Source: an uncultured virus (IMG/VR IMGVR_UViG_2061766007_000696)
Lineage: Duplodnaviria; Heunggongvirae; Uroviricota; Caudoviricetes
Virus record (IMG/VR): IMGVR_UViG_2061766007_000696
DNA length: 64,000 nucleotides
Reading direction: 5' to 3' (one strand)
Shown: piece by piece, positions 4,567-49,320 of the stretch
How positions within the stretch are numbered: position 1 is the stretch's first letter
Layout: each line of letters opens with the position of its first letter
Made by a program: the position numbers and the translations under genes
The notes under the pieces: model-generated
Database searches by the model: none
What the model saw: only the letters and a program-made list of their open reading frames with translations
Told to the model about the DNA's origin: nothing

Positions 4567-5247
4567 ATGGGGGAGAAAAATATTCGTGTTCTCGTTTGTT
4601 GCGAGGAATCTCAGGTTATCACAAAAGCGTTTCGTGAATTAGGGGTAGAAGCGTATTCATGTGATATTATCGACTGTTCTGGTGGTCATCCTGAGTGGCA
4701 TATAAAACAAGATGTTATTCCATTACTAAATGGAAATTGTGAGTTTCAAACTTGTGACGGTGAAACACATAAGATTGATGGAAAATGGAATTTATTAATT
4801 TGTCATCCAGTCTGCCAATTTCTTACCATAACTGGTAATCGTTGGTTTAATGTAGAACGTTATGGGGACAAAGCAAGAGAACGTATTAAAAAACGTGAAG
4901 AAGCAGCAGAATTCTTTATGAAATTTGCAAATGCTGATTGTGATCATATATTAATCGAGAATCCTGTGGGCTTCATGAATACTTATTATAGAAAACCCGA
5001 TCAGATAATTCAGCCGTGGATGTTCCCACCTGATGTTGAGGCTAAACAGACATGTCTTTGGTTAAAGGGATTACCTAAATTAATTCCGGGTAGAACAGAA
5101 GCACCAGAAGTTGAATATTATGAATGGGTTAGTAAAAAGGGTATNNNNNNNNNNNNNNNNNNNNNNNNNNNNNNNNNNNNNNNNNNNNNNNNNNNNNNNN
5201 NNNNNNNNNNNNACTCAATATACAGAATATTTAAGGGGGCTAAATGA
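4567..5247 (+). CDS. phage C5-cytosine methyltransferase-like protein
   Basis: VLVCCEESQ, CHPVC, IENPVG, KQTCLWLKGLP motifs. Confidence 0.75.
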   Translation: MGEKNIRVLVCCEESQVITKAFRELGVEAYSCDIIDCSGGHPEWHIKQDVIPLLNGNCEFQTCDGETHKIDGKWNLLICHPVCQFLTITGNRWFNVERYGDKARERIKKREEAAEFFMKFANADCDHILIENPVGFMNTYYRKPDQIIQPWMFPPDVEAKQTCLWLKGLPKLIPGRTEAPEVEYYEWVSKKGXXXXXXXXXXXXXXXXXXXXXXXXSIYRIFKGAK

Positions 5248-5822
5248 ATAATGAGATATGGAAATATATAGAGGGTTCAGATAATTGTTACGTAAGTAAT
5301 ACTGGAAAAATAAAACAAGGCGATAAAGAATTACCTTTCAAATATGAAAAAACAAATGGATATTATAGATGTGTTATTCCGGGAATTGGCAGAGAACGAG
5401 TTCATAGAGTAGTTGCAAAAGCATTTATAGATAATCTTGAAAACAAAAAATATGTTGATCATATTGATGGATGTAAGACAAATAATAATGCCTCTAATCT
5501 TCGTTACGTAACAAATAGTGAAAACCTTTCAGCTGCTGGAAAACAAGGACTAATTAAAGTTACAACTCACGATAAAATAGATGGAAAACAACCAGTATTG
5601 GGGGTCGAAATTAATACAAAAAGATTTAAAGTTTTTGAATCAGAAAAAGATGCCTCAGAATATATTGGTGGGGATAAAAGCGGAACAGGTGTTGCTCGTT
5701 CAATAACACAAGGACGAATTACAAAAGGCTGGTTATTTTCTAAAATAGACTTGAGCGAAAAAATAAAAGAAATGCTTTCTATTATTGAAAATAAAATTAT
5801 TATAGATGAAGTAAAGGACTAA
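5244..5822 (+). CDS. NUMOD4/HNH homing endonuclease
   Basis: EIWKYI..YVSNTG, VHRVVAKAF, VDHIDGCKTNNNASNL. Confidence 0.9.
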   Translation: MNNEIWKYIEGSDNCYVSNTGKIKQGDKELPFKYEKTNGYYRCVIPGIGRERVHRVVAKAFIDNLENKKYVDHIDGCKTNNNASNLRYVTNSENLSAAGKQGLIKVTTHDKIDGKQPVLGVEINTKRFKVFESEKDASEYIGGDKSGTGVARSITQGRITKGWLFSKIDLSEKIKEMLSIIENKIIIDEVKD

Positions 5823-10015: not shown

Positions 10016-10519
10016 ATGAATCTTTCAGCACCATGGTACATTTATTATCAAAAACTTCTTCAGCTTTTTGGGGATGATCCTGAAATTGATATGCTGATTA
10101 AGGATGAAAACAACTTCATAATATATGTAGAAAATGTAGAAAAGGCTAATGCTTTATCAAAGCTGCTTCCACCGACAAAAACTTTTGGCAACGTAGAAGT
10201 GAATATTACTATTGTACCTGCTAATAAGGACGAACAGGATATTCTTGATGTTTTTGAAGATGCATTTAAGGATAATCCTAACTTTGTAAAAACAGAATCA
10301 TTTTTGACTCCAAGAGGAGATTCTATAAAGGCTGTTGTGATGGCTAAGAAAGTTGCTCAGTATTATAGCGATGATATTAAAAAGCCAAGCGGATATACAA
10401 GTGCTCTCTTTGAAGATATTGCAAGAGATGTTTNNNNNNNNNNNNNNNNNNCTGGACCAATGTTGAGGTTAATAAGGAGGACTGATTATGAGCAGACAAA
10501 CAGCAACTGCAAGTGCTAG
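10016..10519 (+). CDS. conserved hypothetical phage protein
   Basis: ORF MNLSAPW... preceded by aaggagg SD. Confidence 0.6.
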   Translation: MNLSAPWYIYYQKLLQLFGDDPEIDMLIKDENNFIIYVENVEKANALSKLLPPTKTFGNVEVNITIVPANKDEQDILDVFEDAFKDNPNFVKTESFLTPRGDSIKAVVMAKKVAQYYSDDIKKPSGYTSALFEDIARDVXXXXXXXGPMLRLIRRTDYEQTNSNCKC

Positions 10520-10680
10520 TGGAGGAATAGGTTTCTTTGGACTTTTAACAATAGTATTTATTGTTTTAAAACTTCTTGGTGTAATAACATGGTCTTGGGT
10601 ATGGGTATTATCTCCTTTATGGATNNNNNNNNNNNNNNNNNNNNNNNNNNNNNNNNNNNNNNNNNNNNNNNNNNNNNNNN
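10488..10680 (+). CDS. small membrane protein (3' end in gap)
   Basis: GGIGFFGLLTIVFIVLKLLGVITWSWVWVLSPLW hydrophobic segment. Confidence 0.65.
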
Positions 10681-10738
10681 NNNNNNNNNNNNNNNNNNNN
10701 NNNNNNNNNNNNNNNNNNNNNNNNNNNNNNNNNNNNNN

Positions 10739-11150
10739 AATTTCCGACAGTTTATGTAAAAGACTCGAAAAAATAATAAAAGCAACAAAAGCTAAGGTGG
10801 TACTTACATCATCCTGGAAAGATAATTCAAGTCCTCAAGACCTTGCTTATATGAAAAAGCGGTTAAATAGGCATTTAGCTTTACCGATTGGACAGACTTT
10901 TGAGAAAAGACCGGGACTTAGAGGAACAGGAATTAATGATTATCTTAAGGATCATCCGTGTGATGAGTTTGTAATTCTTGATGATTTTGACTTTAATTTT
11001 TATGAGGAAGGATTGTGGGAACATGTTGTTCTTACAGACCCCGTTGTGGGACTTACAAATGACGATGTGGATGATGCTATAAAGATACTTAATGGTGATT
11101 TATCAACGCATGAACACACAAGGCTTGAGGGCTGGGGATATCACAGATGA
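10739..11150 (+). CDS. HAD-family phosphatase of the RNA-repair (Swiss Army Knife HAD) type (5' end in gap)
   Basis: VVLTSSWK, RGTGI, FVILDD, TDPVVGLT. Confidence 0.7.
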
Positions 11151-11347: not shown

Positions 11348-11406
11348 TGGGGCGTAGCTCAGATGGTCAGAGCTTTAGGTCGTGGGTTCAAATCCCACCG
11401 TTCCAA
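11348..11406 (+). ncRNA. tRNA-like RNA lacking the anticodon arm
   Basis: TGGGGCG/CGTTCCA acceptor, GCTC-agatggtca-GAGC D arm, only TTTAGGTC before GTGGG-TTCAAAT-CCCAC. Confidence 0.75.
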
Positions 11407-11551: not shown

Positions 11552-12849
11552 ACACACCTAAGTGAGCGAGAAAGCCCACGGTTTTAACCGTGGGATGAAA
11601 GCGTATTAAACCAAGGAGTTAATTATTGAATAAAGGTGTTAAGTTTAGGATATATCCTAACAAAGAACAAGAAAACTTAATATTGCAGACGCTTGGTTGT
11701 TGCCGACTTATCTACAACAAAGGTTTAGATATGCGTGATAAAGCATATAAGGATGGTGAAAAAGCCAATTATGCAAGTACTTGTAGAATGATAACAGAAC
11801 TAAAAAGTGATGATAACTTTAGCTTTCTTAAAGTAGTTGATTCAATGGCACTTCAACAATCATTAAAAGATTTGGATAGAGCCTATCAGAACTTCTTTAA
11901 GAAAAGAGCAAAGTTTCCGCAGTTTAAGAGTAAGCATAACAACTATCAATCATACAGAACGCTTAATCAAGGTAACAATATCCGTATTGTAGGCAATTAT
12001 CTCAAACTTCCCAAATTGGGATATGTAAAAGTAAAACAATCAATGGAAGTAGGACATATCAACAATGTGACTATTGAGAAAACACCTACAGAAAAATACT
12101 TTGCGGTACTAAATGTAGACTTTGAACCAGAGTTTAAACAAAACAATGGTAATTCAATCGGAATAGATGTAGGACTTAAAGAGTTCTATACAGACAGTAA
12201 TGGTAACAAAATTGATAATCCTAAGTACCTTGAAAAGTCAGAAAAGAAATTAAAGCGTGAACAACGTAAGCTTTCAAGAAAACAGAAAGGCTCAAAGAAC
12301 AGAAATAAACAAAGGATAAGGGTTGCAAGGATCCATGAAAAGGTAACTAATCAGCGTAATGATTTCCTACAGAAAGAATCCACTAAGCTAGTGCGTGAAA
12401 ACCAAACAATCTGCATAGAGGATTTAAACATTAAGGGAATGATACGCAATCATAGATTAGCAAAAACAATATCAAGTGTTTCATGGAGCAAGTTCTTTAC
12501 AATGCTTGAATATAAGGCTACATGGTATGGAAATACAATAATAAGAGTACCTACATTCTATCCAAGTAGTCAGACCTGTAGTAAATGCGGTCAAGGTAAT
12601 CCAATGGTAAAGCATTTGTGGGTAAGAGAATGGGAATGTCCATTTTGCCATACACATCATGATAGAGATTACAACGCAAGCATAAATATCTTAAACAAGG
12701 GGCTGTCACTAGCCTAAGATAGTGGCAAATAGGGTAGGGCATACCCGAATATACGCTTGTGGACACAATGTAAGACGTTGAACCTTTAGGTCAGCGCAGT
12801 AGTGGATGAAGCAAGAATCCCCTGTCTTTAGGCATGTAGGGAGTGTCAA
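11552..12849 (+). mobile_element. IS200/IS605-family non-autonomous (tnpB-only) element; left boundary approximate
   Basis: left-end hairpin CCCACGG-ttttaa-CCGTGGG at 11575-11594, tnpB, right-end hairpin ending in TCAA at 12849; no tnpA seen. Confidence 0.85.
11626..12717 (+). CDS. tnpB: RNA-guided endonuclease TnpB
   Basis: KFRIYPNKEQ HTH, RuvC motifs GIDVG / IEDL / DRDYNAS intact, CxxC..CxxC zinc finger. Confidence 0.95.
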   Translation: MNKGVKFRIYPNKEQENLILQTLGCCRLIYNKGLDMRDKAYKDGEKANYASTCRMITELKSDDNFSFLKVVDSMALQQSLKDLDRAYQNFFKKRAKFPQFKSKHNNYQSYRTLNQGNNIRIVGNYLKLPKLGYVKVKQSMEVGHINNVTIEKTPTEKYFAVLNVDFEPEFKQNNGNSIGIDVGLKEFYTDSNGNKIDNPKYLEKSEKKLKREQRKLSRKQKGSKNRNKQRIRVARIHEKVTNQRNDFLQKESTKLVRENQTICIEDLNIKGMIRNHRLAKTISSVSWSKFFTMLEYKATWYGNTIIRVPTFYPSSQTCSKCGQGNPMVKHLWVREWECPFCHTHHDRDYNASINILNKGLSLA

Positions 12850-12870: not shown

Positions 12871-13122
12871 GAATTTTTGTGTGACATATTGTATTTGATT
12901 GATTTGGATAAGGAGCAGAAAGAATGATAGCACATACATGTTATGGAGTTATAGATGATTGTAAGAATGAAGAGAGTTATGGTGAAATTTGTTTACAGTG
13001 CAATAAGTGCGGAAGATTTGACAAGGATGAGACAGAAGAGGAGCAGGAAGAATGACAGATAAATTAAGAGAACTGATAGACAATGCCACATTTAGACCCG
13101 TAGGAACTTTTGNNNNNNNNNN

Positions 13123-13320
13123 AATGCAAGTATAAATATTTTAAACAAAGGGCTGTCACTAGCCTAAGATAGTGATAAATAGGGTAGGGCATACCCGAAT
13201 ATACGCTTGTGGACATTGTGTAAGACGTTGAACCGCTTGCGGTCAGCGCAGTAGTGGATGAAGCAAGAATCCCACGAATTTATTCGTGGGAGTGTCAACA
13301 AATATCCTAACGGAAAAATA
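13123..13320 (+). ncRNA. second omega-RNA / IS605 right end with a different guide (CAAATATCCTAACGG)
   Basis: about 175-nt near-copy of 12673-12849 with altered hairpins, starting right after a 10-N gap. Confidence 0.7.
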
Positions 13321-13414
13321 GTCGAAACTCTTTCGTATAAAAATTGAATGCATTGACTTGCAAAGGGCGCGAACCTTGCGCCCTTATTTTTATATAAAAA
13401 AGGAGGAAAAAGTT

Positions 13415-13957
13415 TTGTCAACAAGGGGGTTATATGGTATCCGCAAAGGGGGAGTGGATAAGTGTACTTATAACCATTGTGATTCTTATCCCGATGGTTT
13501 AGGCAGAGATATTCTGCAATTCTGTGCTACTCATTCAGAGCAACAAATTTCTGATTTATACAATTTAATAGAGTTATTTAATACTAATGTTCCACCAACA
13601 GAGGAACAGAAAGCTATGTGTAAAATAAATGGCTATGTAAATTTAAATGTTAGTAGTCAATCTGATTCAGATTGGTATTGTTTACTAAGAGAATTACAAG
13701 GTAATATTAATGCTTGGGATAAAGCTCTTAAACAGAATGTAAAGTTACCNNNNNNNNNNNNNNNNNNNNNNNNNNNNNNNNNNNNNNNNNNNNNNNNNTT
13801 TTGTGAGTATGCTTATATTATCAATCTTGATACACATGTTTTAGAGTTTTGGAGAGGATTTCAAACGAAACCTAATTTTAATAACAGATATGGTTTCAAT
13901 ATATCATCTCAAGGNNNNNNNNNNNNNNNNNNNNNNNNNNNNNNNNTTGGGAAATAA
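13415..13957 (+). CDS. conserved phage protein (MSTR...YxHxDxYP type); 3' end uncertain
   Basis: TTG start after aggagg SD; STRGLYG and YNHCDSYPDGLG. Confidence 0.65.
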   Translation: MSTRGLYGIRKGGVDKCTYNHCDSYPDGLGRDILQFCATHSEQQISDLYNLIELFNTNVPPTEEQKAMCKINGYVNLNVSSQSDSDWYCLLRELQGNINAWDKALKQNVKLXXXXXXXXXXXXXXXXXFCEYAYIINLDTHVLEFWRGFQTKPNFNNRYGFNISSQXXXXXXXXXXXXGK

Positions 13958-14020
13958 AACTTTCAGATATAAATTTACAAAATATTGATAATATTATTGA
14001 AGAAATGGAGGATATGTGCA

Positions 14021-14710
14021 ATGAAGATGAAAATTAGACACGGATGTTTCGAATCCAATAGCTCAAGCCAACATTCGATAGCTGTTACAAAAAATGATCA
14101 TTTTCTTAAAATGGAAGATTTTGAGGATTATCCTGNNNNNNNNNNNNNNNNNNNNNNNNNNNNNNNNNNNNNNNNNNNNNNGAAGCTTGATTTTGAAAGA
14201 CATCCATTTAAGTTCCTTTGTACATTTGAAGAAAAAGTACAATTTGCAATTGCATCATTATGTGGCGGTTATATTAAGCCAGAAAAACGTGATGAACAAT
14301 TTAAGTTGATTGTACAGGCAGTACAAACAATTAATCCTAGCATCAAATCAATTAAGCTTCCCGAAGTAGAAGAGGAATTATATTTAGATGAAAAGGGTGA
14401 ACGTATTCCGGCATCTATTGTCCATTATGATTATGATACTGATAAGGATTTTTATATTTTAGATGGACATAAATGGCATGTTACAAAAACAGATTTATAT
14501 CATAGAGTTCCTTATTATGGATATGTTGATCATCAGAGTAGCGGATTACTTGAGGAATTTTTGAAATCTGAGAATATTACACTTGTTGATTTTCTTGGAA
14601 ATAGAAAGTATGTAGTCATCATTAGTGGTGATGAATATTGCGATTGGCAAGCATTCAAATATAGTGGACTTATAAACATTGCTAACATTGAAAAGGAGTT
14701 TGGGGTATGA
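14021..14710 (+). CDS. NSSS-motif protein 1
   Basis: N-terminus MKMKIRHGCFESNSSSQHS; C-terminal GYVDHQS. Confidence 0.75.
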   Translation: MKMKIRHGCFESNSSSQHSIAVTKNDHFLKMEDFEDYPXXXXXXXXXXXXXXXXKLDFERHPFKFLCTFEEKVQFAIASLCGGYIKPEKRDEQFKLIVQAVQTINPSIKSIKLPEVEEELYLDEKGERIPASIVHYDYDTDKDFYILDGHKWHVTKTDLYHRVPYYGYVDHQSSGLLEEFLKSENITLVDFLGNRKYVVIISGDEYCDWQAFKYSGLINIANIEKEFGV

Positions 14711-15199
14711 AAAAAGCAATAAGAGTTAGTGTGTGGGAGACAAATTCATCTTCTTGTCATTCGGTTTCAGTTTCAAGGAAATCAAACAAAGATTATGAGT
14801 CAATAAGACATCATATTGATTTAGACGGAATATTACATATAGAACCAGAGGAATTTGGATGGGAACAAAAAAAATATAGATTTCNNNNNNNNNNNNNNNN
14901 NNNNNNNNNNNNNNNNNNNNNNNNNNNNNNNNNNNNNNNNNNNNNNNNNNNNNNNNNNNNNNNNNNNNNNNNNNNNNNNNNNNNNNNNNNNNNNNNNNNN
15001 NNNNNNNNNNNNNNNNNNNNNNNNNNNNNNNNNNNNNNNNNNNNNNNNNNNNNNNNNNNNNNNNNNNNNNNNNNNNNNNNNNNNNNNNNNNNNNNNNNNN
15101 NNNNNNNNNNNNNNNNNNNNNNNNNNNNNNNNNNNNNNNNNNNNNNNNNNNNNNNNNNNNNNNNNNNNNNNNNNNNNNNNNNNNNNNNNNNNNNNNAGT
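14707..15199 (+). CDS. NSSS-motif protein 2 (mostly in gap)
   Basis: N-terminus MKKAIRVSVWETNSSSCHS. Confidence 0.7.
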
Positions 15200-15601
15200 A
15201 TGAAAATTAAAATTAGGAGTGGATTATTTGAAACAAATTCAAGTTCAACACATTCATTAGTTATTATGACAGAAAAAAATTTTAGAAAGTGGGAATCAGG
15301 TTACTATTATTACAATCCTTATAATTATAAGTATGAACTTGAACATGAATATTTAGACCCTTCTTACAAACCAGTTGACAAAGCTTTATATTCTGAAGAT
15401 GAAGTAAGACAGTTTTTACTTCATAATGCAAATATTACACAAGATGACTTTGAAGATAATGATTTTGAAGATTTAGCTTATGATAGTTGTTTTTATAATA
15501 TAGATAAATTTGATGGTGAATTAGAAGTAGATGAAAAATCATTTGTTACTCCTAGTGGGGATAGAATAATATGCCATTGTGCTTATGGCTATAATTATTG
15601 A
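15200..15601 (+). CDS. NSSS-motif protein 3
   Basis: N-terminus MKIKIRSGLFETNSSSTHS. Confidence 0.75.
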   Translation: MKIKIRSGLFETNSSSTHSLVIMTEKNFRKWESGYYYYNPYNYKYELEHEYLDPSYKPVDKALYSEDEVRQFLLHNANITQDDFEDNDFEDLAYDSCFYNIDKFDGELEVDEKSFVTPSGDRIICHCAYGYNY

Positions 15602-15609
15602 GGGCTAAT

Positions 15610-16500
15610 ATGAAAACAATAGGTAAATATAAAAATGGTAATTATACAGTAACACTTTTATCAGACGGTACTAAGATTCGAGAAACTAAGGATGATGATT
15701 TTAAACCAGAATTTCCTGAATCAATGGATATTACTATTACTGAGAGATGTATAAACAATTGTGCCGAATGTTATGCTAACTGTACACCACAAGGGCAGCA
15801 TTGTGATTTCACTAAATGGCAGACATTATTAAATAGTGTGCATCCTTATACTGAATTAGCCATAAATGGTAATCAGATAACTGATATTCCTCATCTTGAA
15901 GATTTTCTAGTTCATATGAGAGAAAGAAAAGTAGTTGTCAACATGACAGTGAATCAGATTGATTTTGAAAAGAATTGGGAATATTTGAAAAGACTTACTC
16001 ATGAAAAGTTAATATATGGACTTGGGGTTTCACTTAATAGAGTTACTGATGATTTATTAAAATTCTTACAGTTTTTCCCTAATGCAGTACTCCATGTTAT
16101 TTGTGGAATCTTTTCACCAGAGGATTATTCTCTTTTAAAGGATCAGGGGTTAAAACTTTTGATTCTTGGATATAAACAGATTGGCAGAGGTCAAGATTAT
16201 TATATTCAAGATTATAAGAATATTAAACTTAAACAATATTGGTTAAAAGAATATCTGCCTGAAATGCTTGAATATTTTGAGGTTATCAGTTTTGATAATA
16301 ATGCACTGCAACAGTTAGATATTAGAAAACTAATGACTGATAAAGAATGGGAAGAATTCTATATGGGAGATGAGGGCGCATTTACTTTTTTCATCAACCT
16401 TGTACAAGGATATTTTGCTCAGAATTCCATGTCAGAAGTTNNNNNNNNNNNNNNNNNNNNNNNNNNNNNNNNNNNNNNNNNNNNNNNNNNNNNNNNNNNN
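15610..16500 (+). CDS. radical SAM protein (3' end in gap)
   Basis: PESMDITITERCINNCAECY = CxxxCxxC; ELAING and NMTVN. Confidence 0.85.
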
Positions 16501-17240
16501 NNNNNNNNNNNNNNNNNNNNNNNNNNNNNNNNNNNNNACTTGACACAACATCAATATAATAATAACCGAAAAAGTACAATGCAACTTGTGTCAAGTGAAT
16601 TAAATAGAAAGGATTTTATTTATGACTAAAGAACAATTAGCTTTATATAGGGATAGATTTCATTGTGGTGATAAAGTATTTACTGATAATCCGGCAGAAA
16701 CAGGTAAAGAAATTATTGAGGTAACTATCTATGAAAAATATCCTAAATATGCAGTAGTTACTAATGGCAAGTATAGATGGTGTAAACATTGGACAGATTT
16801 AAGATTAAATAACCCATAAGGAGAAAAAAATGAACGGAAAAGAAGTAATGAAATTAATGAAAGATATAGATGATACAATTCAGAAAGCACCTGATTCAAG
16901 TGATCATGTGATTGATTATCCATGTCCTGCTTGTAAAAGCCCAGNNNNNNNNNNNNNNNATATTAATGGCAGAAAATCCTTAGCAAGATTTGGATGTACT
17001 AAATGTTCATGGTTTATTGTTGTATGAAGGAGAATATTAAATGCAATACAGAAATGGGGATTCTGTAGTAATAGACGGTGTAGTAATTGGACAACAGTAT
17101 GATAATGGAGTTTTGTTTTATCAAATTGCTATTGATGATCACATAGTTATCTCAGTACCGAGTAAAGTTGTAAAACCAGGAAATGTGTCAAATAATTCAA
17201 AGATAATGGATGCTAAAGAGTATAAGCCAGGGAGGTTCAA

Positions 17241-18005
17241 ATGAGTTACAAAAGTGAAATTTTTAAAGATATTCTTGAACAATTTGAAACTGAGGAATTA
17301 AAAAACTTCTGCATTGATTTATTAGAAAAAAGACCAGATGAGAATTACACTATACCAAGTAGTACATCATTGAAATATCACAATGAAACTCAATGTCAAT
17401 CAGGAGGACAGATTAAACATGAACTCATGGCTTGTACTATTATGAATTATCTGCTAGGTCTTGAATATATGAAAGAAAAATACCCTAAACCTAAGCAGCG
17501 TGATTCTTTAAGAATAGCAATGTTAATGCATGATTGCTGTAAGACTAATGGTGGTAAATATACTGTTCATGAGCATCCGATTCTTAGTGGCAAATTTGTA
17601 GAAGAATGTGAAGTTGAACATGATATAAAACTTCAGTTAAAGCAGTATATAAGTCGCTTAATAGCTTCACATAGCGGAGAATGGACTACATCAAATAGAA
17701 GTTCAGTTGTTCTTCCTAAACCAGAAACAGATGATCAGTTTCTTATTCATCTTTGTGATTATCTTTCATCAAGGTCGAATTTAGATATGATTTATTCTGA
17801 TGAAGTTAATAAAATGATAAATGATAATCTTCCACCTGAAGATAGACCAGATATTACTACATGGACATTTAAGTTTGGCAAATACGCTGGAAAGTCTATT
17901 CCTGAAATTTTAAATATTGAACCTGATTATCTCAGATGGGTCAAGAACGAATCTGATATGGGTAAAACAGAACCGCTTAAAACATTTTTGGAGAAATTAG
18001 GATAA
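17241..18005 (+). CDS. HD-domain phosphohydrolase with C-terminal FGKY domain
   Basis: KYH, KHE, MHDCCK, SHSG, CDY; FKFGKYAGKSIPEI. Confidence 0.8.
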   Translation: MSYKSEIFKDILEQFETEELKNFCIDLLEKRPDENYTIPSSTSLKYHNETQCQSGGQIKHELMACTIMNYLLGLEYMKEKYPKPKQRDSLRIAMLMHDCCKTNGGKYTVHEHPILSGKFVEECEVEHDIKLQLKQYISRLIASHSGEWTTSNRSSVVLPKPETDDQFLIHLCDYLSSRSNLDMIYSDEVNKMINDNLPPEDRPDITTWTFKFGKYAGKSIPEILNIEPDYLRWVKNESDMGKTEPLKTFLEKLG

Positions 18006-18022
18006 TTAAATAGGGGGGTAAT

Positions 18023-18952
18023 ATGAAACAAAAACACTTTATGGATATTGAAAATCTGAGAGAAGAATCTACTGAATTAAGAGAATCAAATGCTCTTGGA
18101 TTTGAAATAGGGGATATTATTCAAATAACAGAGAAGTATGATGGAGCTAATGCTTGCGCTTGTTGGGATTCTGAAGAAAACTGCATGAAAGCTTTTTCAA
18201 GAAAACAGGAATTAGGATTTCAAAATACACTCAATGGTTTTTGGAATTTTGTGCAAGCTTTTTCAGAGGAAACAATTGCATTATTTCAAGCTCATCCTTA
18301 TTGGAGAATTTTTGGAGAATGGAATCTCAAGAATAAGATAGTTTATAACGACACAGGAAAAGTTAAGCACTGGTATGTGTACGATATTTTTGACACTGAA
18401 ACAGAACGTTGGTTGCATCAAGCTGATGTTAGACATTTCTGTGAGGATGCTAATCTTGAATATATAAATGTATTATATTATGGGCCGTTTACTGGATGGG
18501 AACATGTTAAGACATTTTTGCATTCACCTGCATATGGTGACAAGCAAGAGGGAATAGTTTGTAAGGATCAGACAAAACTTAATAATCCTGATACTAGACT
18601 TCCATTCTATCTTAAGATTGTTAACGAAGATTTCAAAGAAAAGATGAAAACTCGTGAGAAGGTTATTAATCCTGAAGCAGAAGCTGCTAAACAAGAAGCT
18701 ATAGAAATGGCATCGTCAATCATCACAAAGAACAGAGTGGAAAAAGAATTGTTTAAGATGAGAGATGAACAAATTGTTCCTGAAAAAATTACACCACAGG
18801 ATATGGGATTAGTTGCTCGTACTTTACCTCAACGTATTTATGATGATTGCATAAAAGAAGATAAAGAGCTTGTATTACAATGCGGTGAACATTTTACAAA
18901 TACATGTAAATCATTATCGATGAAATATGCCAGGGAAATAATTTTAGAGTGA
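18023..18952 (+). CDS. Rnl2-family RNA ligase
   Basis: TEKYDGAN (KxDG), FGEW, YDIF, EGIVCK, LKIV nucleotidyltransferase motifs. Confidence 0.85.
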   Translation: MKQKHFMDIENLREESTELRESNALGFEIGDIIQITEKYDGANACACWDSEENCMKAFSRKQELGFQNTLNGFWNFVQAFSEETIALFQAHPYWRIFGEWNLKNKIVYNDTGKVKHWYVYDIFDTETERWLHQADVRHFCEDANLEYINVLYYGPFTGWEHVKTFLHSPAYGDKQEGIVCKDQTKLNNPDTRLPFYLKIVNEDFKEKMKTREKVINPEAEAAKQEAIEMASSIITKNRVEKELFKMRDEQIVPEKITPQDMGLVARTLPQRIYDDCIKEDKELVLQCGEHFTNTCKSLSMKYAREIILE

Positions 18953-19000
18953 ATTACCCATCACCTAAAGGTCATGGGTTTTCTGGCTAAACTATAATAA
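18949..19000 (+). repeat. IS200/IS605-end-like palindrome (remnant or MITE)
   Basis: GTGAATTACCCATCACCTAAAGGTCATGGGTT hairpin with no associated transposase. Confidence 0.4.
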
Positions 19001-19007
19001 AATTAGA

Positions 19008-19776
19008 TGAGAAAAAGTATAAAAGGGATTAAAATTGAANNNNNNNNNNNNNNNNNNNNNNNNNNNNNNNNNNNNNGTATATTTCATCATTGTATATTAA
19101 TCAATTATTTATTCCTTCACCAATAAAAGTTTTCTATAATTTAGTGTACACTTTAAAGGATGGTAGTTTAATAAAAGCCACATTATATTCACTCCGAAGA
19201 ATAATAATAGCAATTTTATTGTCAGGTATTATAAGCATTCCTATAGGATTACTTATTTATAATTTTGAGATTGTGAGTGATATTTTAAATCCAATAGCAA
19301 GTGCATTAAGATATCTTCCTATAACAGCTTTTTATCCGTTGTTAATTATGTGGTTTGGAATAAATGAAAAGATGAAAATAGCTTTTCTTTTCATAGCTAC
19401 ATTTGTTTATATGATGCCTTCAGTTGTTCTGTGTTTGAATGAAATTAATGAAGATATTATAAACACTGGTATTACTTTAGGAATGAATAAATGGCAGCTT
19501 ATTACTCAAATACAATTACCTGCTACACTTCCATCAATTATGAATAGTTTTGTTGTAATGATCGGAACATCATATTCTTATATAGCAGTTTGCGAAACAG
19601 TTAATGCAAGATATGGATTAGGATGGATTATACAACAATCTTCTTCAAGAGGAAGAACAGATATGGTATTTATGGCAATTATTGTCATTACAATACTTAG
19701 TGTTATATGTGATTCAATTGGTAAATATTTAATTAAGAAAGCATTTAAATGGAGATATTATAAAGCAGATGATTGA
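19008..19776 (+). CDS. ABC transporter permease (SsuC/TauC/NitT type)
   Basis: FIPSP, ALRYLPITAF, several transmembrane segments, GLGW. Confidence 0.85.
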
Positions 19777-20419
19777 ATTAGAAAACTTAAGCATAGGATA
19801 TTCACACGATAAACCTATCCTTAAAAACATAAATTATATTTTTGAGGATAACAAAATATATGGGTTATTAGGAAAATCTGGCTATGGAAAGAGTACATTA
19901 TTAAGAACAATATGTGGACTCTTAAAACCCATATCGGGCACTATTAAAGTTAATGGCAATTCATTTACAAGTGCAAGGAAAGATAATATCTATATGATGT
20001 TTCAGAACTACACTTGTTTTGATTGGCTAAAATGTCTTGATAATGTTCTTATAGCTCAAAAAGTATATGGAAAAGTTACAAATCAGGATGTGGATAATGC
20101 TATTAAATGGTTAAATGCTGTTGGACTTGGAAAACACTTAGATAAATATCCTACTCAGCTTTCAGGCGGTATGAAGCAACGACTTGCATTAGCAAGAACA
20201 TTGTTCATGAATCCAAATGTAGTTTTAATGGATGAACCTTTATCTGCATTAGATGAAAAGACAAGAGAAAAAATGCAGAATCTTATTATANNNNNNNNNN
20301 NNNNNNNNNNNNNNNNNNNNAATATAATAATAATGGTAACGCATAGTCATGAAGAAGCAGAAAAGGTTTGTGATGTAATCATAGATTTTAGTAAAGGGGG
20401 ATTTGAAAATGGGAATTAA
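19769..20419 (+). CDS. ABC transporter ATP-binding protein
   Basis: GKSGYGKS, LSGGMKQR, LMDEP, VTH. Confidence 0.95.
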   Translation: MIELENLSIGYSHDKPILKNINYIFEDNKIYGLLGKSGYGKSTLLRTICGLLKPISGTIKVNGNSFTSARKDNIYMMFQNYTCFDWLKCLDNVLIAQKVYGKVTNQDVDNAIKWLNAVGLGKHLDKYPTQLSGGMKQRLALARTLFMNPNVVLMDEPLSALDEKTREKMQNLIIXXXXXXXXXXNIIIMVTHSHEEAEKVCDVIIDFSKGGFENGN

Positions 20420-27474: not shown

Positions 27475-28140
27475 ATGTTTATAAATAAAATAGGACAGCA
27501 ACATCTTGAGTATGGATTAAATTGTCAGGATGCTGGACTACTAAAAGACAAAATCAAAATTGTTTGTGATGGTTGTTCTGAAGGAAAAAATTCTGAAGTT
27601 GGAGCAAAGCTTTTTTGCCATTTGTATGATGTATTTAATTTAAAGCAATATGGTGTAATACAAGGAATAGCCAATGCTTTCACAATATTAGCACCTATGT
27701 TTAATCAAACCTCGGAAACAGTTAAAAACTATATCTGTTTTACGATTCTTATTGTTGAGGAAACAGATGATGATTTTTTAGTTTATTATTGTGGTGATGG
27801 ATTTATTATTGCTCAAAAAAGAGATGGGAATATTGATTTCATAGAATTAAATGATGGGGAATATCCAAAATATTATTCATATAATTACACAAAAAAAGAA
27901 TCTCTGAAATACTATAAAGATGGGGTTTCTGTTCAATCAGTTCATTTTCCAAAATCTGAATATCTTAATGTAGGTATTGCATCTGATGGCTTAAGATATA
28001 TTTTTACTGATAAAAACATTGAGGAAAAATCTGTAGAATTGCTTAAAAATAATAAAGAAATCGCTTTAAAAAGATTTATAAATAAAAATCAGACNNNNNN
28101 NNNNNNNNNNNNNNNGGTGCTTTATGAAAATATCAAATAG
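27475..28140 (+). CDS. PP2C-like (YegK-like) phosphatase
   Basis: NCQD, VCDGCS, GDG, ASDG. Confidence 0.85.
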   Translation: MFINKIGQQHLEYGLNCQDAGLLKDKIKIVCDGCSEGKNSEVGAKLFCHLYDVFNLKQYGVIQGIANAFTILAPMFNQTSETVKNYICFTILIVEETDDDFLVYYCGDGFIIAQKRDGNIDFIELNDGEYPKYYSYNYTKKESLKYYKDGVSVQSVHFPKSEYLNVGIASDGLRYIFTDKNIEEKSVELLKNNKEIALKRFINKNQXXXXXXXXVLYENIK

Positions 28141-29787
28141 AGAGCTTAATAAATTGAATCAAATTGCAGAGGGCGGTGAGGGTATTATTTATGAATATAA
28201 TAATGATATTCTCAAAGTATACAAAAATACTGTAAATATNNNNNNNNNNNNNNNNNNNNNNNNNNNNNNNNNNNNNNNNNNNNNNNNNNNATTAATGATA
28301 AAAGACAATTTATCGGATATCTTATGCCTAAAATTCAGGGTAATGAATTACGCATGTATACCAATAAAAAGTTTTTAAAGACCAATAATATTACCACTAA
28401 AGATATTTTAGAAATATTGAATAAGATAAAAAATACAGTTGATTATCTTCATAAAAATAATATTTATGTTGGTGATTTAAACGACCAGAATATCTTGGTA
28501 GACTTTTCAAATAATGTTTATTTTATTGATTGTGATAGTTGGTCTATAGATAATGATAAATGCGAAGTAGTTATGGACTTATTTAAAGATCCATTAATGC
28601 ATAGTAATGATTTTAATGAAAAGACAGATACTTATGCACTTAGTATTATTATCTGGAAAACATTAACAAGAATACATCCTTATGGCGGCACAATGAATCC
28701 TGATATAGATATTTTAGAACGTATGAAAAAAGGTATTACTCTTATAGATAATCCCAATGTAAAGATTCCGAGAACAATAAAATCCTGGAATTATCTCAGT
28801 CCAAATCTCATACAAAGTCTTAAAATAGTATTTGAAAACAAAAGTCGAGAAATTCATGATGAATTATCAGATATNNNNNNNNNNNNNNNNCATGAATATT
28901 ATTATGGTAAATTTAATCAATGTCCATTATGTAATGCTAATGCACAAGTTCTTATGAAACCAGTTTTAAATGGGGTAATAAACGGATTAAAATTATATTC
29001 ATTACTTGTTGATAATAAAGTTAAGATTGTTTTAAATACATCTATGTATATAAATCAGAATGATATAATTACAGATATGGATAATCATGAATATGAAAAA
29101 TATCAAAAAGGAATAAGATATTATTTTATAACTGTGGATGATGTACAATATCTTGTACATGATAAAGATTCGACAATTGATTTTTCTATAAATAATTGTA
29201 ACTATAGTATTCCTAAAAGATATAAATCTGCTATCTGTGTTGAAAATAATGAGATTTTTTATATCTCAAATGCTAATAAATTTGCAAAGCTTACAGCTAC
29301 TAAAAATGGTAATGGATTGCAGAATATTACCTCGTGTAGCTATGAATCTTATTTCTCATCTGAAAATGGTAATACTTGTATTGTCAATAAATATGATAGC
29401 AACCTTATTATAAACATAGAGGGTAGGAATATAGAATATAAATATGATAAGAAAATTGTGAATTATGGTATTCATTATGATATAATAAGTTGTAAGTGGC
29501 TGATTGTTTTTGAAAATAGTCAGGGCAAATTTGACACATTAGTTATTTCTGATTGTGTTGAATATTCAAATGATCAGATCAAATATCAAGGCAGTCTCAA
29601 TAATTTATGTTTATCTAATAGTATCATATATATTCCCATTGACGGTAAAATCAGAGGATATAACTATAATAAACAAGCATTTAAAGATTTTGAATGTAAT
29701 GTTGTTTCCGCTGATAGTAAGCTGATTAAAAATGGTTCATCATTTATTATTATTAATGACGAAAATATATATAAACTTGGAAAATGA
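28124..29787 (+). CDS. Ser/Thr protein kinase (YegI-like) with beta-rich C-terminal domain
   Basis: AEGGEGIIY, GDLNDQNILV, FIDCDS, HPY. Confidence 0.85.
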
Positions 29788-30547: not shown

Positions 30548-33500
30548 ATGCAAAATCTTCATCGTCATTCTTCTTATTCAAACATAATGATAACCGACAG
30601 TGCTGTTTCAAATGAGGATTATGCAAAACGTGCTGTTGAATTAGGACATAAAACCTTGTCATCTGTTGAACATGGATGGCAGGGTAATTATTTTCAAACT
30701 TATGAGTTAGCAAAAAAATATGGATTAAAACCCATTATTGGAACAGAGGCATATTGGGTTAAAGATAGAATTGCAGAAATAAAAACTGTAAACAAAAAAG
30801 GTGAGGGGGTCTTTAATAAAGATAGATCAAATCATCATATATTAATATTAGCTAAGTCTAACATGGGACGTGAGGCTATAAATGATATTCTTTCCGAGGC
30901 AAACATTAGTGGTTATTATTTTAGACCAAGGGTTGATTTAGAGTTGCTTTTTAGTTTACCACCTAATGATGTAATGATTACTTCTGCATGTATTGCCTTT
31001 AGTGGATATGAGGATATAGATGATATTATTCTTAAATTTCATGNNNNNNNNNNNNNNNNNNNNNNNNNNNNNNNNNNNNNNNNNNNNNNNNNNNNNNNNN
31101 NNNNNNNNNNNNNNNNNNNNNNNNNNNNNNNNNNNNNNNNNNNNNNNNNNNNNNNNNNNNNNNNNNNNNNNNNNNNNNNNNNNNNNNNNNNNNNNNNNNN
31201 NNNNNNNNNNNNNNNNNNNNNNNNNNNNNNNNNNNNNNNNNNNNNNNNNNNNNNNNNNNNNNNNNNNNNNNNNNNNNNNNNNNNNNNNNNNNNNNNNNNN
31301 NNNNNNNNNNNNNNNNNNNNNNNNNNNNNNNNNNNNNNNNNNNNNNNNNNNNNATAAAAGATGCTATGAATGTTACAGATCAGGCATTAGAATTTTGTGA
31401 TTACGATAATGTAAGAATTTTTACTAAAGATATAAAGTTACCTACTCTTTATCCTGGGGAAACAAAAGAACAAAAGGATAAAAGATATAGTAAACTTATT
31501 AGTAAAAAATTTACAGAATATATGAAAAATATTCCTTCTGAGGATTATGATAGATATTTTGAAGGTGTGAAAGCTGAAATACAAACATATAAAGATACGG
31601 GTATGTGTGATTATCCACTTCTTGATTATGCTATTGTAANNNNNNNNNNNNNNNNNNNNTTTCTTTACTAATACATTATGTGGATTTTCAAAAGTTGATA
31701 GATTTAAATCGGCTATCAAATTATATCCTGAACGATTTATTTCAACTACACGCATTCTTTCTACTAAGAGTCTTCCTGATATTGATTTAAATTGCGGTAC
31801 ACCAGAAATATTTGAGGAATCTCAAAAAAGAATACTTGGAGAAAATCATGTTGCTCCACTTATTGCTTTTGGTACTTTGAAAAAACGCTCTGCATTTAAA
31901 ATTTATGCAAAAGCAANNNNNNNNNNNNNNNNNNNNNNNNNNNNNNNNNAGATTGGCAAATATGAAGAAGCTGTTAAAAATGCTCCTGATGAATCAAAAG
32001 ATAGTATTGATATTCACGATTATATTGATGAAAAATATGAAGAATATCTCAAACAAAGTGAAGAATATTGGGGTGTAATTTCTGATAAGAAGAAAGCCCC
32101 AAGTGCTTATCTTCTTTATGATGGTGATATACGCCGAGAAATAGGTCTTATTAAATGTAAGAGTGAATCTTCGAAAAAAGAATATATTACTTGTGTAATA
32201 GATGGTGCTGTAGCTGAGAATTATAAGTTCTTAAAAAATGATATTCTTAAAGTTGATGTTGTATTACTTATTGATAAAGTTTTTAAACGTATAGGTATAG
32301 AACATTTTGATGTAAATAAATTATTAGAATTAATAAAAAATGATCAAAAAGTTTGGGATTTATATGCTAGTGGTTATACTATTGGATTAAATCAAGTCGA
32401 GCAAGAAGGTAGTAAAAGAAAATGCATGGCTTATAAACCTCATAATATATCTGAATTAAGTGCTTTTGTGGCTGCTATACNNNNNNNNNNNNNNNNNNNN
32501 NNNNNNNNNNNNNNNNNNNNNNNNNNNNNNNNNNNNNNNNNNAAGATTTTTCCTGGGGAATTCCTACACTTGATAATCTTATAAGAACAGAAGAACTACC
32601 AGTATCGTTTATGTTTTTTCAAGAACAGGTAATGTCTGTTTTAAATTATGCTGGTTTTCCTATGGATGAATGTTACGGAATAATTAAAGCAATTGCTAAG
32701 AAACATCCTGAAAAAGTTAAACCTTTAAAAGAAAAATTTATTGAAGGATTTAAAGAAAAACTTATTCAAAATGAAGGATTATCAGAAGAAGAAGCACAAA
32801 AAAATTCTAAAGATGTTTGGCAGATAGTAAACGATAATTGCGGATATTCCTTCAATTCAGCCCATGCTTTTTGTATGGCTCTTGATAGTTTATATCAAGC
32901 ATGGCAAAAAGCTAATTATCCTTATGAATTTTATGAGGTATTATTACAGCATTATTCTGATAAAGGTAATAAAAATAAAGTATCTATTCTTAAAGAAGAG
33001 ATGNNNNNNNNNNNNNNNNNNNNNNNCAGTTTAAATTCAGGGATGATAACAGACATTTTACAGCTAATAAAGAAAAACATTTTATATCACCATCATTAAG
33101 TTCTCTGAAAGGTATGGGAAATACAGTAGCAGAGGATTTATATAACTTGAGGAATAAAAAATATAATAGTTTTGTTGAACTTCTTGATGACTTAAAAACA
33201 ACTTCTTGTAAATCAAGTCAATTAAATATACTTGTTAAATTAGATTATTTTTCGGAATTCGGTGACATTAATTACCTTCTCAAAGCAATAAAATACTATG
33301 ATATTCTCCGCACTAAGAGGCAACTTAAACATGAGCAGCTTAAACTTCTCAATCTTCAGAGTAAAGATGTAGAACCTTATGCTGAAAAAGTTCTGGCTAA
33401 GATTATAAAATTAAAAGATGCCAAAGGTTTACTTGAATATGCTATTAATAACATAAAAGAACCTAAATGTACTACTCTTGAGAAAATGCGTTATCAGAAT

Positions 33501-38021: not shown

Positions 38022-39882
38022 ATGGGGGTTGAAAGGTATGAAAAATATAGGTCATATCTTGACTTTATAAAAAAATACAGAACAGTAAGTAATGCTTCAA
38101 CAGGAAGTGCGGTTGACTCAAATGCTAATGTAGAAAATAAAAACGTAACAACTTGTACTGGCGAATTAATGAAAGCAGATTTTATTGGAATTAACAGATT
38201 ACAAATGTCTGATATGCTTACAAAATTATATGGCAAAGATATTGCCAATGAGTATATAAGACAATTAGATAGTCATGAAATTTATAAACATGATGAAACA
38301 CAGCCATTACTTCCTTATTGCGTAAGNNNNNNNNNNNNNNNNGGATGGAAGAAATTGGTGGAATATCAGCACCTCCTAAAAATTTACAATCGTTTTGTGG
38401 GTCATTTATAAATCTTGTTTTTGCTATATCTGCACAATTTGCAGGAGCAGTAAGTACTCCAGAATTTCTGACTNNNNNNNNNNNNNNNNNNNNNNNNNNN
38501 GATGATTATTATAAACATCCTACAAAAGTAGTAGATAATTCAAATAAAAAAAGAACAATTGAAGATGTTCTTACACAGTACTTTCAGCAGGTTTGCTATT
38601 CATTAAATCAACCAGCAGCTGCAAGAAATTATCAAAGTGTTTTTTGGAATATAGCATATTTTGACAAAGCATATTTTGAAGGAATATTTGATGATTTTGT
38701 TTTCCCTGATGGTTCAAAACCTACTTTTGATTCTGTTATGTGGCTTCAGAAAAAATTTATGGAATGGTTTAATCAAGAAAGATTAAGAAAGATATTAACA
38801 TTTCCTGTTGAAACAGCAAACCTTTTAAATCATACAGACGCAAATGGTAATTCATATTTNNNNNNNNNNNNNNNNNNNNNNNNNNNTTTTGTTGCAGAAA
38901 TGTGGAGTAAAGGACATTCATTTTTCTTATATACAAGCGATAGTGTAGATAGTTTGGCTTCATGTTGTAGATTACGTAATGAACTCCAAGATAATACATT
39001 TTCTTATACTCTTGGAGCAGGTGGCGTAAGTACTGGAAGCAAATGCGTTATAACTATTAATTTTAATAGGTTAGTTCAAAACATATACAAGAATCGAGAA
39101 GAATATATTAAAGATAACGGTCATCAAAAACTTGATAAAGCAATAAGAGAACAAGTTAATAAAATTCATAAATATTTGATTGCTTATAATGAGAATCTTA
39201 TAGAAAATTTAAAAGCTGGATTAATGCCAGTTTATGATGCTGGTTATATTAGTATGGATAAACAGTTTCTTACTATTGGTATAAATGGTCTTGTAGAAGG
39301 AGCAGAATTTTTAGGTATCTCAATTACACCTAATGATGAATATGAAGAATATTGTACTGCTTGTCTAAAACCAATTTACGAAGAAAACAAAAACGATAAA
39401 ACGTCTGAAATTATGTTTAATACCGAATACGTGCCTGCCGAAAATCTAGGAGTTAAAAATGCAAAATGGGACAAAGAGGCTGGTTATTTCTCTCCAAGAG
39501 ATTGTTATAATTCATATTTTTATAAACCTGATGATCCTACACTTTCAATTATTGATAAATTGATTTTACATGGTAAAAAAACAACAAAATGGTTAGATGG
39601 GGGCAGTGCGCTGCATTTGAATTTAAACGAACATCTAACAAAAGAGNNNNNNNNNNNNNNNNNACAGGTTGTCAATATTTTACATTCAATATTCCTAATA
39701 CGGTTTGTAATGATTGCGGATATATAAGTAAACATAAATTTGATAAATGTCCTAGATGTAGTTCTGAGAATGTTGATTGGGCAACAAGAGTTATTGGATA
39801 TCTTAAGCTGATTTCTAAGTTCTCTGAAAAAAGACAAGAGGAAGCAGATAAGAGATATTACATAGACGGAACGGAGTACTAA
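38022..39882 (+). CDS. nrdD: anaerobic ribonucleoside-triphosphate reductase (frame changes at gaps)
   Basis: IYKHD, PYCV, TFPVET, ASCCRL, PAE, GGS, zinc ribbon and RVIGYL glycyl-radical motif. Confidence 0.9.
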
Positions 39883-44596: not shown

Positions 44597-45088
44597 ATGA
44601 CAAGAGAAGTAATTACGAGAGATATCGTTGGTTATGAAGGGCTATATACTATTGATATTTTTGGAAATGTCATAAATCTCAAAAACAATAGGGAAGTAAA
44701 ACAACAAAAAAATAAGTTTGGTTACATGTGTGTTTCGCTTTATAAGGATAAGAAACAAAAACAATATAGAGTACATCGACTAATTGCAGAAACATTTATT
44801 TCCAATCCTCAAAATAAAGAACAGGTAAATCATATAGATGGTGATAAAACACATAATGTTGTATGGAATCTTGAATGGACTACATCAAAAGAAAACAACA
44901 TTCATGCAAGTGATGTAGGGTTGGTTCACAAGGCAAGAAAAGTAAAAATAGTAGAAACTGGAGAGGTGTTTAATTCACTTGGAAGTTGTGCGAGAGCAAT
45001 TAATGGTAATGCAGGAGATATATCAAGATGTATTCATTCAAGAGGAACTAAAACACATAAAGGTTATACTTTTGAAGAGGTGGAATAA
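44597..45088 (+). CDS. NUMOD4/HNH homing endonuclease
   Basis: DIVGYEGLY, VHRLIA, VNHIDGDKTHN..NLEW. Confidence 0.9.
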   Translation: MTREVITRDIVGYEGLYTIDIFGNVINLKNNREVKQQKNKFGYMCVSLYKDKKQKQYRVHRLIAETFISNPQNKEQVNHIDGDKTHNVVWNLEWTTSKENNIHASDVGLVHKARKVKIVETGEVFNSLGSCARAINGNAGDISRCIHSRGTKTHKGYTFEEVE

Positions 45089-49284: not shown

Positions 49285-49320
49285 AAAGCCGACAAACTTT
49301 ATTGCTTGTCGGCTTTTTTT
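49285..49320. terminator. hairpin/terminator at the convergence of xis and int
   Basis: AAAGCCGACAA...TTGTCGGCTTTTTTT. Confidence 0.6.

Follow-up and report, generated by a model that had tools for sequence, protein, structure and literature searches.

To our knowledge, sulfatase maturation is the only known serine-directed protein modification carried out by radical S-adenosylmethionine (SAM) enzymes. The other described systems closest to the locus considered here are the maturases of ribosomally synthesized and post-translationally modified peptides (RiPPs), the activases of glycyl-radical enzymes and the HXS antiphage system, whose protein effector HxsA is matured by two radical SAM enzymes, HxsB and HxsC (Nat Commun 2026, PMC13128918). 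We analyzed a 64,000-nucleotide stretch of DNA from an uncultured virus of the Caudoviricetes (IMG/VR record IMGVR_UViG_2061766007_000696; the whole stretch is called the window), in which three tandem genes for proteins sharing a short N-terminal segment (the tag) are followed by the gene for a divergent radical SAM enzyme. Tag and enzyme form a self-contained two-part phage module with near-obligate linkage, which is probably an undescribed protein-modification system. In our preferred reading, which we consider about evenly balanced between right and wrong, the enzyme binds and chemically modifies the tag of variable client proteins. A literature search with tag strings and phage radical SAM phrases, covering the main text of open papers, returned no paper on the tag/enzyme pair.

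The module lies in a co-directional block on the plus strand, evident from the open reading frame (ORF) listing and the sequence, which consists of a gene at 13415-13957 followed by the genes for the tagged proteins A, B and C and the enzyme, in that order. Protein A (14021-14710; 229 amino acids) starts at the ATG at 14021, with the N-terminus MKMKIRHGCFESNSSSQHSIAV in the ORF listing (start also given as MKMKIRHGCFESNSSSQHS), and has a long body of the type termed A/B below; 46 nucleotides are masked at 14136-14181. Its tag (14021-14080), MKMKIRHGCFESNSSSQHSI, fits the profile of 190 unique tags described below. The start of protein B (14707-15210; ATG at 14707) overlaps the stop of A (ATGA). 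Protein B has the N-terminus MKKAIRVSVWETNSSSCHSVSV (start also given as MKKAIRVSVWETNSSSCHS) and the tag MKKAIRVSVWETNSSSCHSV (14707-14766). With the visible stop at 15210 it would comprise 167 amino acids if the frame holds across the 312 nucleotides masked at 14885-15196, which leave 59 residues visible. Protein C (15200-15601; ATG at 15200; 133 amino acids) is unmasked and has a short, C-type body ending in ..CAYGYNY; its N-terminus is MKIKIRSGLFETNSSSTHSLVI (start also given as MKIKIRSGLFETNSSSTHS) and its tag is MKIKIRSGLFETNSSSTHSL (15200-15259). The enzyme gene (15610-16629) starts 9 nucleotides past C and encodes the CxxxCxxC motif CINNCAECYANC (15748-15771; Cys47, Cys51 and Cys54), the motif of the [4Fe-4S]/SAM cluster. 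Its C-terminal part is masked (16441-16537). Since homologues of ~300 amino acids end ~14 residues past the last aligned position, the gene probably ends near 16510, within the masked segment, the stop at 16629 being the first visible one. This layout bears out an earlier note on the locus, made from the sequence alone, which had described three tandem tagged genes followed by a CxxxCxxC protein. A megablast search with 13300-19000 against 50,697 phage records gave no match.

To determine how widely tag and enzyme occur together, we used two sets of IMG/VR loci, one seeded with the enzyme (the best 80 loci of 524 stretches encoding a relative) and one seeded with the tag (the best 80 of 434 stretches). 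A tag ORF was present within 6 kb of the enzyme at 79 of the 80 enzyme-seeded loci, nearly always directly upstream and on the same strand; at the 80th, the tag ORF was cut by the contig end. Conversely, the enzyme was found within 10 kb of the tag at 76 of the 80 tag-seeded loci. For three of the remaining four, the contig carried the enzyme at a distance of 11-30 kb; the locus of the fourth lay at the end of a fragment that was 65% complete. The tag-seeded loci contained one to six tag ORFs versus one enzyme, with one locus (L160) giving no tag ORF under the regular expression used. Where a single tagged protein was present, its body was C-type or B-type. No third gene was conserved with the pair, the commonest real neighbours occurring in 28-33 of 80 loci.

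Among GenBank phages, 24 records contained the enzyme (15 from Lak megaphages, 9 from Microcystis phages), and one member of each lineage was inspected. The Lak-B7 megaphage encodes the enzyme and then four tandem tag genes (166, 221, 187 and 100 amino acids). In Microcystis phage Ma-LMM01, gp130 (tag with B-type body) lies two genes ahead of gp128 (enzyme). Species-representative cellular genomes yielded only four loci, all in metagenome-assembled genomes labelled Tenericutes, Firmicutes or Clostridium, and the enzyme family is almost purely viral, with nearly all members in large phages whose hosts are gut, freshwater or cyanobacterial. The earlier note had named missing linkage between the motif and the radical SAM enzyme in other genomes among the observations that would refute it; in contrast, all 80 enzyme-seeded and 79 of the 80 tag-seeded viral contigs showed the linkage, as did the Lak and Ma-LMM01 phages.

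We next consider the tag itself. Proteins A, B and C all start with MK.(K/A)IR...(F/W)E(T/S)NSSS.HS. A six-frame scan of the window for [EQD][ST]N[ST]S[STM].H found exactly three sites, those of A, B and C, while shuffled sequence (200 rounds) averaged 0.005 sites and never yielded more than 1. A tag profile search across all loci produced 363 matches with 190 unique tags, of the general form M-K-x-x-I-R-x-x-x-(F/Y/W)-E-(T/S)-N-S-S-S-x-H-(S/A/T). Counting from the invariant Glu as position 0, five positions never vary: R-5 (189 of 189 readable tags) and E0, S+3, S+4 and H+7 (190 of 190 each). N+2 is conserved in 188 and S+5 in 186 of the 190 tags. The residue at -1 is aromatic in every tag (F 178, Y 8, W 3, H 1), and position +1 is T (179) or S (11). 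In 171 of 190 tags, E0 is preceded by a Met at a distance of 9 or 10 residues, and the tag is thus strictly N-terminal.

Beyond the tag, the proteins fall into different body types. Proteins A and C have 63 and 38 relatives, respectively, at E ≤ 1e-3, all of them metagenomic, without a Pfam domain and with only 'hypothetical' names; blastp relatives of protein B were found in 16 of 80 loci. In a profile-profile comparison, the A and C families aligned only over residues 1-28 (probability 99%). Conserved in the C family are the tag and a C-terminal TPSGD..VAFG.YGYDG segment, and in the A family the tag, FGR.PF, a K..Y helix, YGYVD(H/E) and V.DGDE. By eye against the consensus, the visible part of protein B has the FGW...KKY signature of the A/B body class, suggesting that A and B are probably homologous beyond the tag. 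The earlier description of three paralogues sharing only an N-terminal motif therefore holds for A versus C and probably fails for A versus B. When every tag-bearing ORF of 169 loci was pooled (286 unique proteins) and compared by blast from residue 29 onward, the bodies formed 14 clusters, dominated by the A/B type (147 members) and the C type (119 members). The tag-bearing proteins have 81-267 amino acids, with a median near 137-193. Both major body types are acidic (median pI ~4.5; protein A 5.4, protein C 4.5). Tags on longer proteins (282-342 amino acids) were found six times, none of these proteins having a Pfam domain.

Searches for relatives of known function were largely negative. Pfam, NCBIfam and PADLOC gave no match for A, B or C, no Pfam family was present in more than 3 of 35 A-family members, and the A-family profile had 0 matches against PDB at E ≤ 10. 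In PHROGs, protein C matched phrog_28997 over the length of the tag only (0.0013), and Atlas returned only viral 'hypothetical protein' clusters (scores up to 0.90, low recognition).

The occurrence of one N-terminal peptide on unrelated small acidic proteins recalls the internal-protein loci of phage T4, whose products are reportedly cut by the prohead protease gp21 after hydrophobic-x-Glu. By analogy, the tag could be a capsid-targeting or injection signal and the gene array an injected arsenal, and V-F-E is indeed found just before the serines. We consider this highly improbable. What accompanies the tag is neither a protease nor a head gene but a radical SAM enzyme, and this enzyme even occurs in fusions with tagged proteins; invariance reaches eight residues beyond the Glu; and in the window as in Ma-LMM01 the genes sit among replication and RNA-repair genes. 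A targeting signal would also leave the obligate enzyme unexplained.

Structure prediction was performed with AlphaFold for protein C and for P0039, a homologue 86% identical to protein A. Both bodies were modelled confidently, with a predicted local distance difference test score (pLDDT) of 83.4 for C and 89.9 for P0039. In contrast, the pLDDT of the tag was below 50 in both models (residues 1-4 and 6-14 in C), as expected for an arm that would be ordered only on a partner. The first modelled strand begins just past the serines (residues 16-23) in both cases. Foldseek against PDB gave no convincing match (best E 0.6 for C and 0.24 for A), and the VIA wide fold search was likewise unconvincing (best Z 3.8 over 41 residues for A; Z 4.5 for C, to a KH domain over 55 residues). 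The sole match in BFVD was one uncharacterised Myoviridae protein (1.4e-4).

Autoproteolysis classically occurs at Asn-Ser junctions, and in pyruvoyl enzymes the chain is cut in front of a Ser. The N-S-S-S sequence might thus be a self-processing site, where cleavage after Asn leaves Ser as an N-terminal nucleophile, or a pyruvoyl group, at the beginning of the first strand; the radical SAM enzyme would then act later or on another target. The modelled strand opening right after the serines would be compatible with this, as in N-terminal-nucleophile (Ntn) folds. However, R-5, the aromatic residue at -1 and E0 are invariant, whereas conservation in propeptides is usually low. The top fold-search matches included no Ntn or pyruvoyl fold (weak evidence in itself), and again the obligate enzyme would be left without a role. 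Self-processing therefore appears improbable.

We then analyzed the enzyme. The enzyme encoded in the window had no Pfam match, including Radical_SAM, at E ≤ 0.1 and none in NCBIfam; PHROGs identified it as phrog_16999, 'Fe-S oxidoreductase' (5.4e-33). An exhaustive phmmer search returned 2258 cluster representatives (50% identity) at E ≤ 1e-3 and 601 at E ≤ 1e-30. In an alignment of 40 members, unmasked or partly masked, Cys47, Cys51 and Cys54 were invariant (40 of 40) with no other invariant Cys, and the consensus C-terminus was free of cysteine, in line with the initial observation of no obvious SPASM cysteine cluster in the visible part. The family also conserves a 35-residue N-terminal hairpin (Y.NGNY...DGTKIR) and a GGE-like segment. 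Pfam Radical_SAM (PF04055) was matched by 28 of the 40 members at E ≤ 0.1 (best 3.4e-9); several scores, among them those of fused members, fall under the curated cut-off of 29.5 bits. Among solved enzymes, the family profile matched GDGT-MAS (7TOL, 8.2e-5), SuiB (5V1Q, 0.004), SkfB (6EFN, 0.04) and QueE (0.05), as well as PylB and viperin structures at E < 1. Sub-threshold NCBIfam matches to the core were obtained for W_rSAM_matur (23 of 40 members), ScmE (21), WgkB (20), MoaA (18), viperin (14), HxsC (TIGR03977; 13, best 6.6e-6) and NrdG2 (TIGR02495; 11, best 2e-5). These matches point to a weak kinship with peptide- or protein-maturing and MoaA/viperin-type radical SAM cores. Judged by sequence, radical SAM membership holds at the level of the family and is weak for the single enzyme sequence of the window, and the enzyme is a real, very divergent radical SAM protein with one cluster and no SPASM/twitch domain. 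PADLOC gave no match for the four window proteins; a weak viperin-core match (1.7e-5) was seen only for P0106, one of the fused proteins described below. No Pfam or NCBIfam match to a RiPP recognition element (RRE)/PqqD domain was detected in the enzyme or its neighbours, and the extensions fused to the enzyme in P0104, P0105, P0139, P0153, P0198 and P0212 had no Pfam domain. As a separate observation, positions 210-288 of the enzyme profile matched the soluble domain of a 'Holin' chain (6pxe_T and relatives, E 0.002); this match covers ~80 residues including the FDNLALEQL segment and may be due to chance.

By eye, inteins were recognized in 4 of the 150 best representatives of the enzyme. In three of P0126, P0129, P0218 and P0238 the intein sits just before the third Cys of CxxxCxxC, and in P0238 it precedes the SAM-binding-like segment GGGN. 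This placement argues that the CxxxCxxC and GGGN motifs are functional. In addition, P0106, P0163 and P0237 are natural fusions that join a tagged B-type protein and the enzyme in a single chain, with the tag intact in all three.

Several features lead us to favour clients over fixed subunits as the identity of the tagged proteins. The tag is the sole universal feature of the partners and is found on at least 14 different bodies, in a copy number of 1-6 per locus versus one enzyme. A lone partner may be either C-type or B-type, and thus no body is indispensable. Furthermore, the three fusions keep the tag although a recruitment handle would be dispensable once fused, suggesting that the tag does more than recruit. 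The earlier note had proposed a phage-encoded post-translational modification system in which the radical SAM enzyme installs a cofactor or crosslink in NSSS. Linkage and fusions support a functional module of enzyme and tag, with tag modification ranked first among the explanations and a cofactor or crosslink in NSSS as its hypothetical outcome. The alternative offered in the note, a self-processing site in a heteromeric enzyme working on nucleotides or DNA, is conceivable, but one to six bodies per locus from 14 clusters are too diverse for a heteromer of fixed composition.

How such a modification might proceed can be outlined as follows. The tag would be a flexible N-terminal arm. The enzyme would bind it, with the basic K-R-Q-I-R-x-G-V-F stretch probably joining the N-terminal hairpin of the enzyme as an added strand; the E-T-N-S-S-S-x-H turn would next be placed over SAM and the cluster. 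The 5'-deoxyadenosyl radical would then take a hydrogen from Ser+3 or Ser+4, which are never substituted and are the likeliest sites of hydrogen abstraction. An oxidised or cross-linked residue would result, possibly by oxidation to an aldehyde or by a crosslink to His+7, and would be required by the client for its job in infection. Tag binding, hydrogen abstraction, target residue, product and biological role are all inferred here. Two further readings, a Toprim-like E...D-x-D in the A-type bodies and an aromatic-x-Ser/Thr cyclophane at F-E-T, were considered but are not put forward. More tentatively, we propose that the phage enzyme modifies an invariant serine of the portable 18-residue tag post-translationally in a new way, thereby arming exchangeable acidic effectors early in infection. 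A phage would then carry one to six armed effectors, drawn from at least 14 unrelated bodies, with host defence or the nucleic-acid machinery of the host as examples of targets.

Several observations weigh against modification of a client tag. The low pLDDT of an invariant segment can be an artefact, because invariant columns give no covariation. The A/B-type bodies retain invariant polar residues (Y and D in GY.DH, D in G(N/D)D), as would an enzyme or a subunit, and in P0183 an A-type body without a tag is fused to the enzyme, hinting that the body itself works with the enzyme. Most peptide-modifying radical SAM enzymes have RRE and SPASM/twitch domains, of which the first gave no Pfam or NCBIfam match in the enzyme and the second is lacking, and the enzyme encoded in the window fails to match Pfam Radical_SAM. 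Finally, the counts do not represent independent events, since the 160 loci are top scorers that include many near-identical phages from few samples; three is the safe number of clearly separate lineages.

Some of these points would be accommodated if the tagged proteins were partner subunits of the enzyme, the tag serving as an arm for docking or catalysis. Such an arm would complete the radical SAM active site or bring in a third substrate, for instance a nucleotide, RNA or DNA, and the paralogues would provide alternative specificities. The fusions and tight linkage suit a holoenzyme equally well, and both the tag-less fusion P0183 and the invariant Y/D/D residues fit this arrangement. Inteins favour replication and nucleotide enzymes, and their insertion in the cluster motif and the GGE-like motif would be consistent with such an activity. 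The surroundings are also rich in nucleic-acid functions, with HAD_SAK_2, HD and RNA ligase genes in the window, primase and RuvC in Ma-LMM01, and a gene resembling CCA-adding enzymes (named by eye from its sequence) in 28 of 80 loci. On the other hand, one to six copies and 14 body clusters are too varied for a defined complex, the tag alone is indispensable given that single-tag systems use a C- or B-type body, and no third gene is conserved, the next real neighbour reaching 33 of 80 loci. We regard the subunit arrangement as the strongest rival, though less probable than modification of client proteins, which we retain as the preferred reading.

The gene at the head of the block, named here for its YNHCDSYP motif (13415-13957; plus strand), has a TTG start and encodes the protein (M)STRGLYGIRKGGVDKCTYNHCDSYP, which matched phrog_30528 (1.2e-12) and no Pfam family. 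It does precede the tagged genes, as had been pointed out, and was tested as a member of the module; blastp found it in 0 of 80 related loci, placing it outside. A terminator-like hairpin at 13363-13385 (plus strand; 10 bp, 6 GC, followed by a T-run; consensus scan only) is probably the upstream limit of the transcription unit. In 15 of 80 loci, a 212-residue protein starting MSSSGIYGIRKD..., with a YNHCDSYP-like start by eye, is encoded ~3 kb downstream of the enzyme.

The module is bordered by RNA-repair-type genes at 10488-11150 (HAD_SAK_2, 5.8e-18), 17241-18005 (HD with an ExoX-like C-terminus) and 18023-18952 (RNA ligase, 3.3e-23); in the 80 loci, HD was a neighbour once and RNA ligase 9 times. 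Where present, the CCA-adding-enzyme-like gene sits upstream of the module. Just upstream of the block lies a TnpB/IS605 OrfB gene (11626-12717; Pfam OrfB_IS605 3e-33, Cas12f1-like TNB). The last ~160 nucleotides of this element (12673-12830) recur 450 nucleotides downstream (13123-13282) with 92% and 87% identity, and this copy resembles a second right end or an omega-RNA-like remnant. A 43-residue CxxC ORF (12924-13055) is located between the two repeat copies.

The window (GC content ~30%, 9.5% masked as N) has the gene content of a large phage. An ABC transporter pair is encoded at 19090-20419 in a phage-like region (permease BPD_transp_1, 1.4e-19; ATPase ABC_tran, 2.9e-33), and genes for a PP2C phosphatase and a Ser/Thr protein kinase lie side by side at 27475-29787. 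DNA polymerase III alpha is present in pieces (30548-33099 and 38318-39727), with separate ORFs for a PHP domain and two finger-domain fragments; masks, introns or inteins could account for the split. NrdD, cytosine methylases, a lysin-like protein and HNH/NUMOD4 endonucleases (5244-5819 and 44597-45085) are also encoded. A tRNA called by Rfam at 11348-11406 (45.4 bits) is absent from the ARAGORN predictions, which place tRNA-Leu, tRNA-Lys and tRNA-Trp at other positions of the window. Near 49-50 kb the GC skew switches sign and gene orientation flips, and two phage-integrase-family genes are found on the minus strand (49302-50282 and 59557-60297).

The enzyme and its tagged partners match no named family or known fold. 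If the tag is the substrate, the module would represent a new radical SAM protein modification directed by a short portable peptide, of interest to enzymologists and protein engineers, and would define a new class of phage early proteins that depend on modification. As a transferable handle, the tag would then allow radical chemistry to be directed at folded proteins. Microcystis phages of the Ma-LMM01 type, for which GenBank names the host strain, provide a possible experimental system with gp128 and gp130.

Compared with the known systems, the module belongs to none of the HXS, RiPP or anaerobic sulfatase-maturating enzyme (anSME) families, because the defining features tested were mostly absent. 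The glycyl-radical activases PflA and NrdG resemble the phage enzyme in being small, having a single cluster and acting on the loop of a folded protein, as the phage enzyme would; NrdG2 was among the weak matches of the family (11 of 40 members). However, neither the glycyl-radical motif RVxG[FWY] nor an invariant client Cys was found in the C-family and A-family alignments, and the invariant Gly of the client ..YGY(D) segment lies outside an RVxG[FWY] context.

The RiPP maturases SuiB/SuiA, SkfB/SkfA and CteB/SCIFF share with the module the arrangement of one radical SAM enzyme beside one or more genes with a common recognition segment, and SuiB and SkfB are among the few solved proteins matched by the family profile. 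In contrast, RiPP precursors are short, with a leader and a variable core, and RiPP enzymes have an RRE and SPASM/twitch domains. The phage substrates would be folded acidic proteins of 100-270 residues, with the likely target inside the conserved segment. Indeed, the tagged proteins (81-267 amino acids, with bodies confidently folded in the models) are not short precursors.

The anSMEs, such as AtsB, are similar in that one radical SAM enzyme serves many paralogous folded clients, oxidising a Ser or Cys in a short invariant motif near the N-terminus. They differ in having a SPASM domain with two auxiliary clusters and in recognizing the sulfatase motif (C/S)-x-(P/A)-x-R. No P/A-x-R followed the serines in the 190 tags, and fold searches with the client bodies revealed no alkaline-phosphatase or sulfatase fold.

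The HXS system resembles the module in the maturation of a folded protein with a short His/Ser motif by radical SAM chemistry in a phage-bacterium conflict (PMC13128918), and 13 of the 40 enzyme-family members weakly match the HxsC model TIGR03977. The window enzyme itself does not match HxsC, and the segment 13415-16629 contains one radical SAM gene and no array of H-x-S repeats. HXS is bacterial and comprises two radical SAM enzymes together with HxsD and a periplasmic effector with repeated internal H-x-S motifs (PMC13128918). The phage module, in contrast, combines one enzyme without a SPASM domain and a single N-terminal tag that is carried by many putative client bodies.

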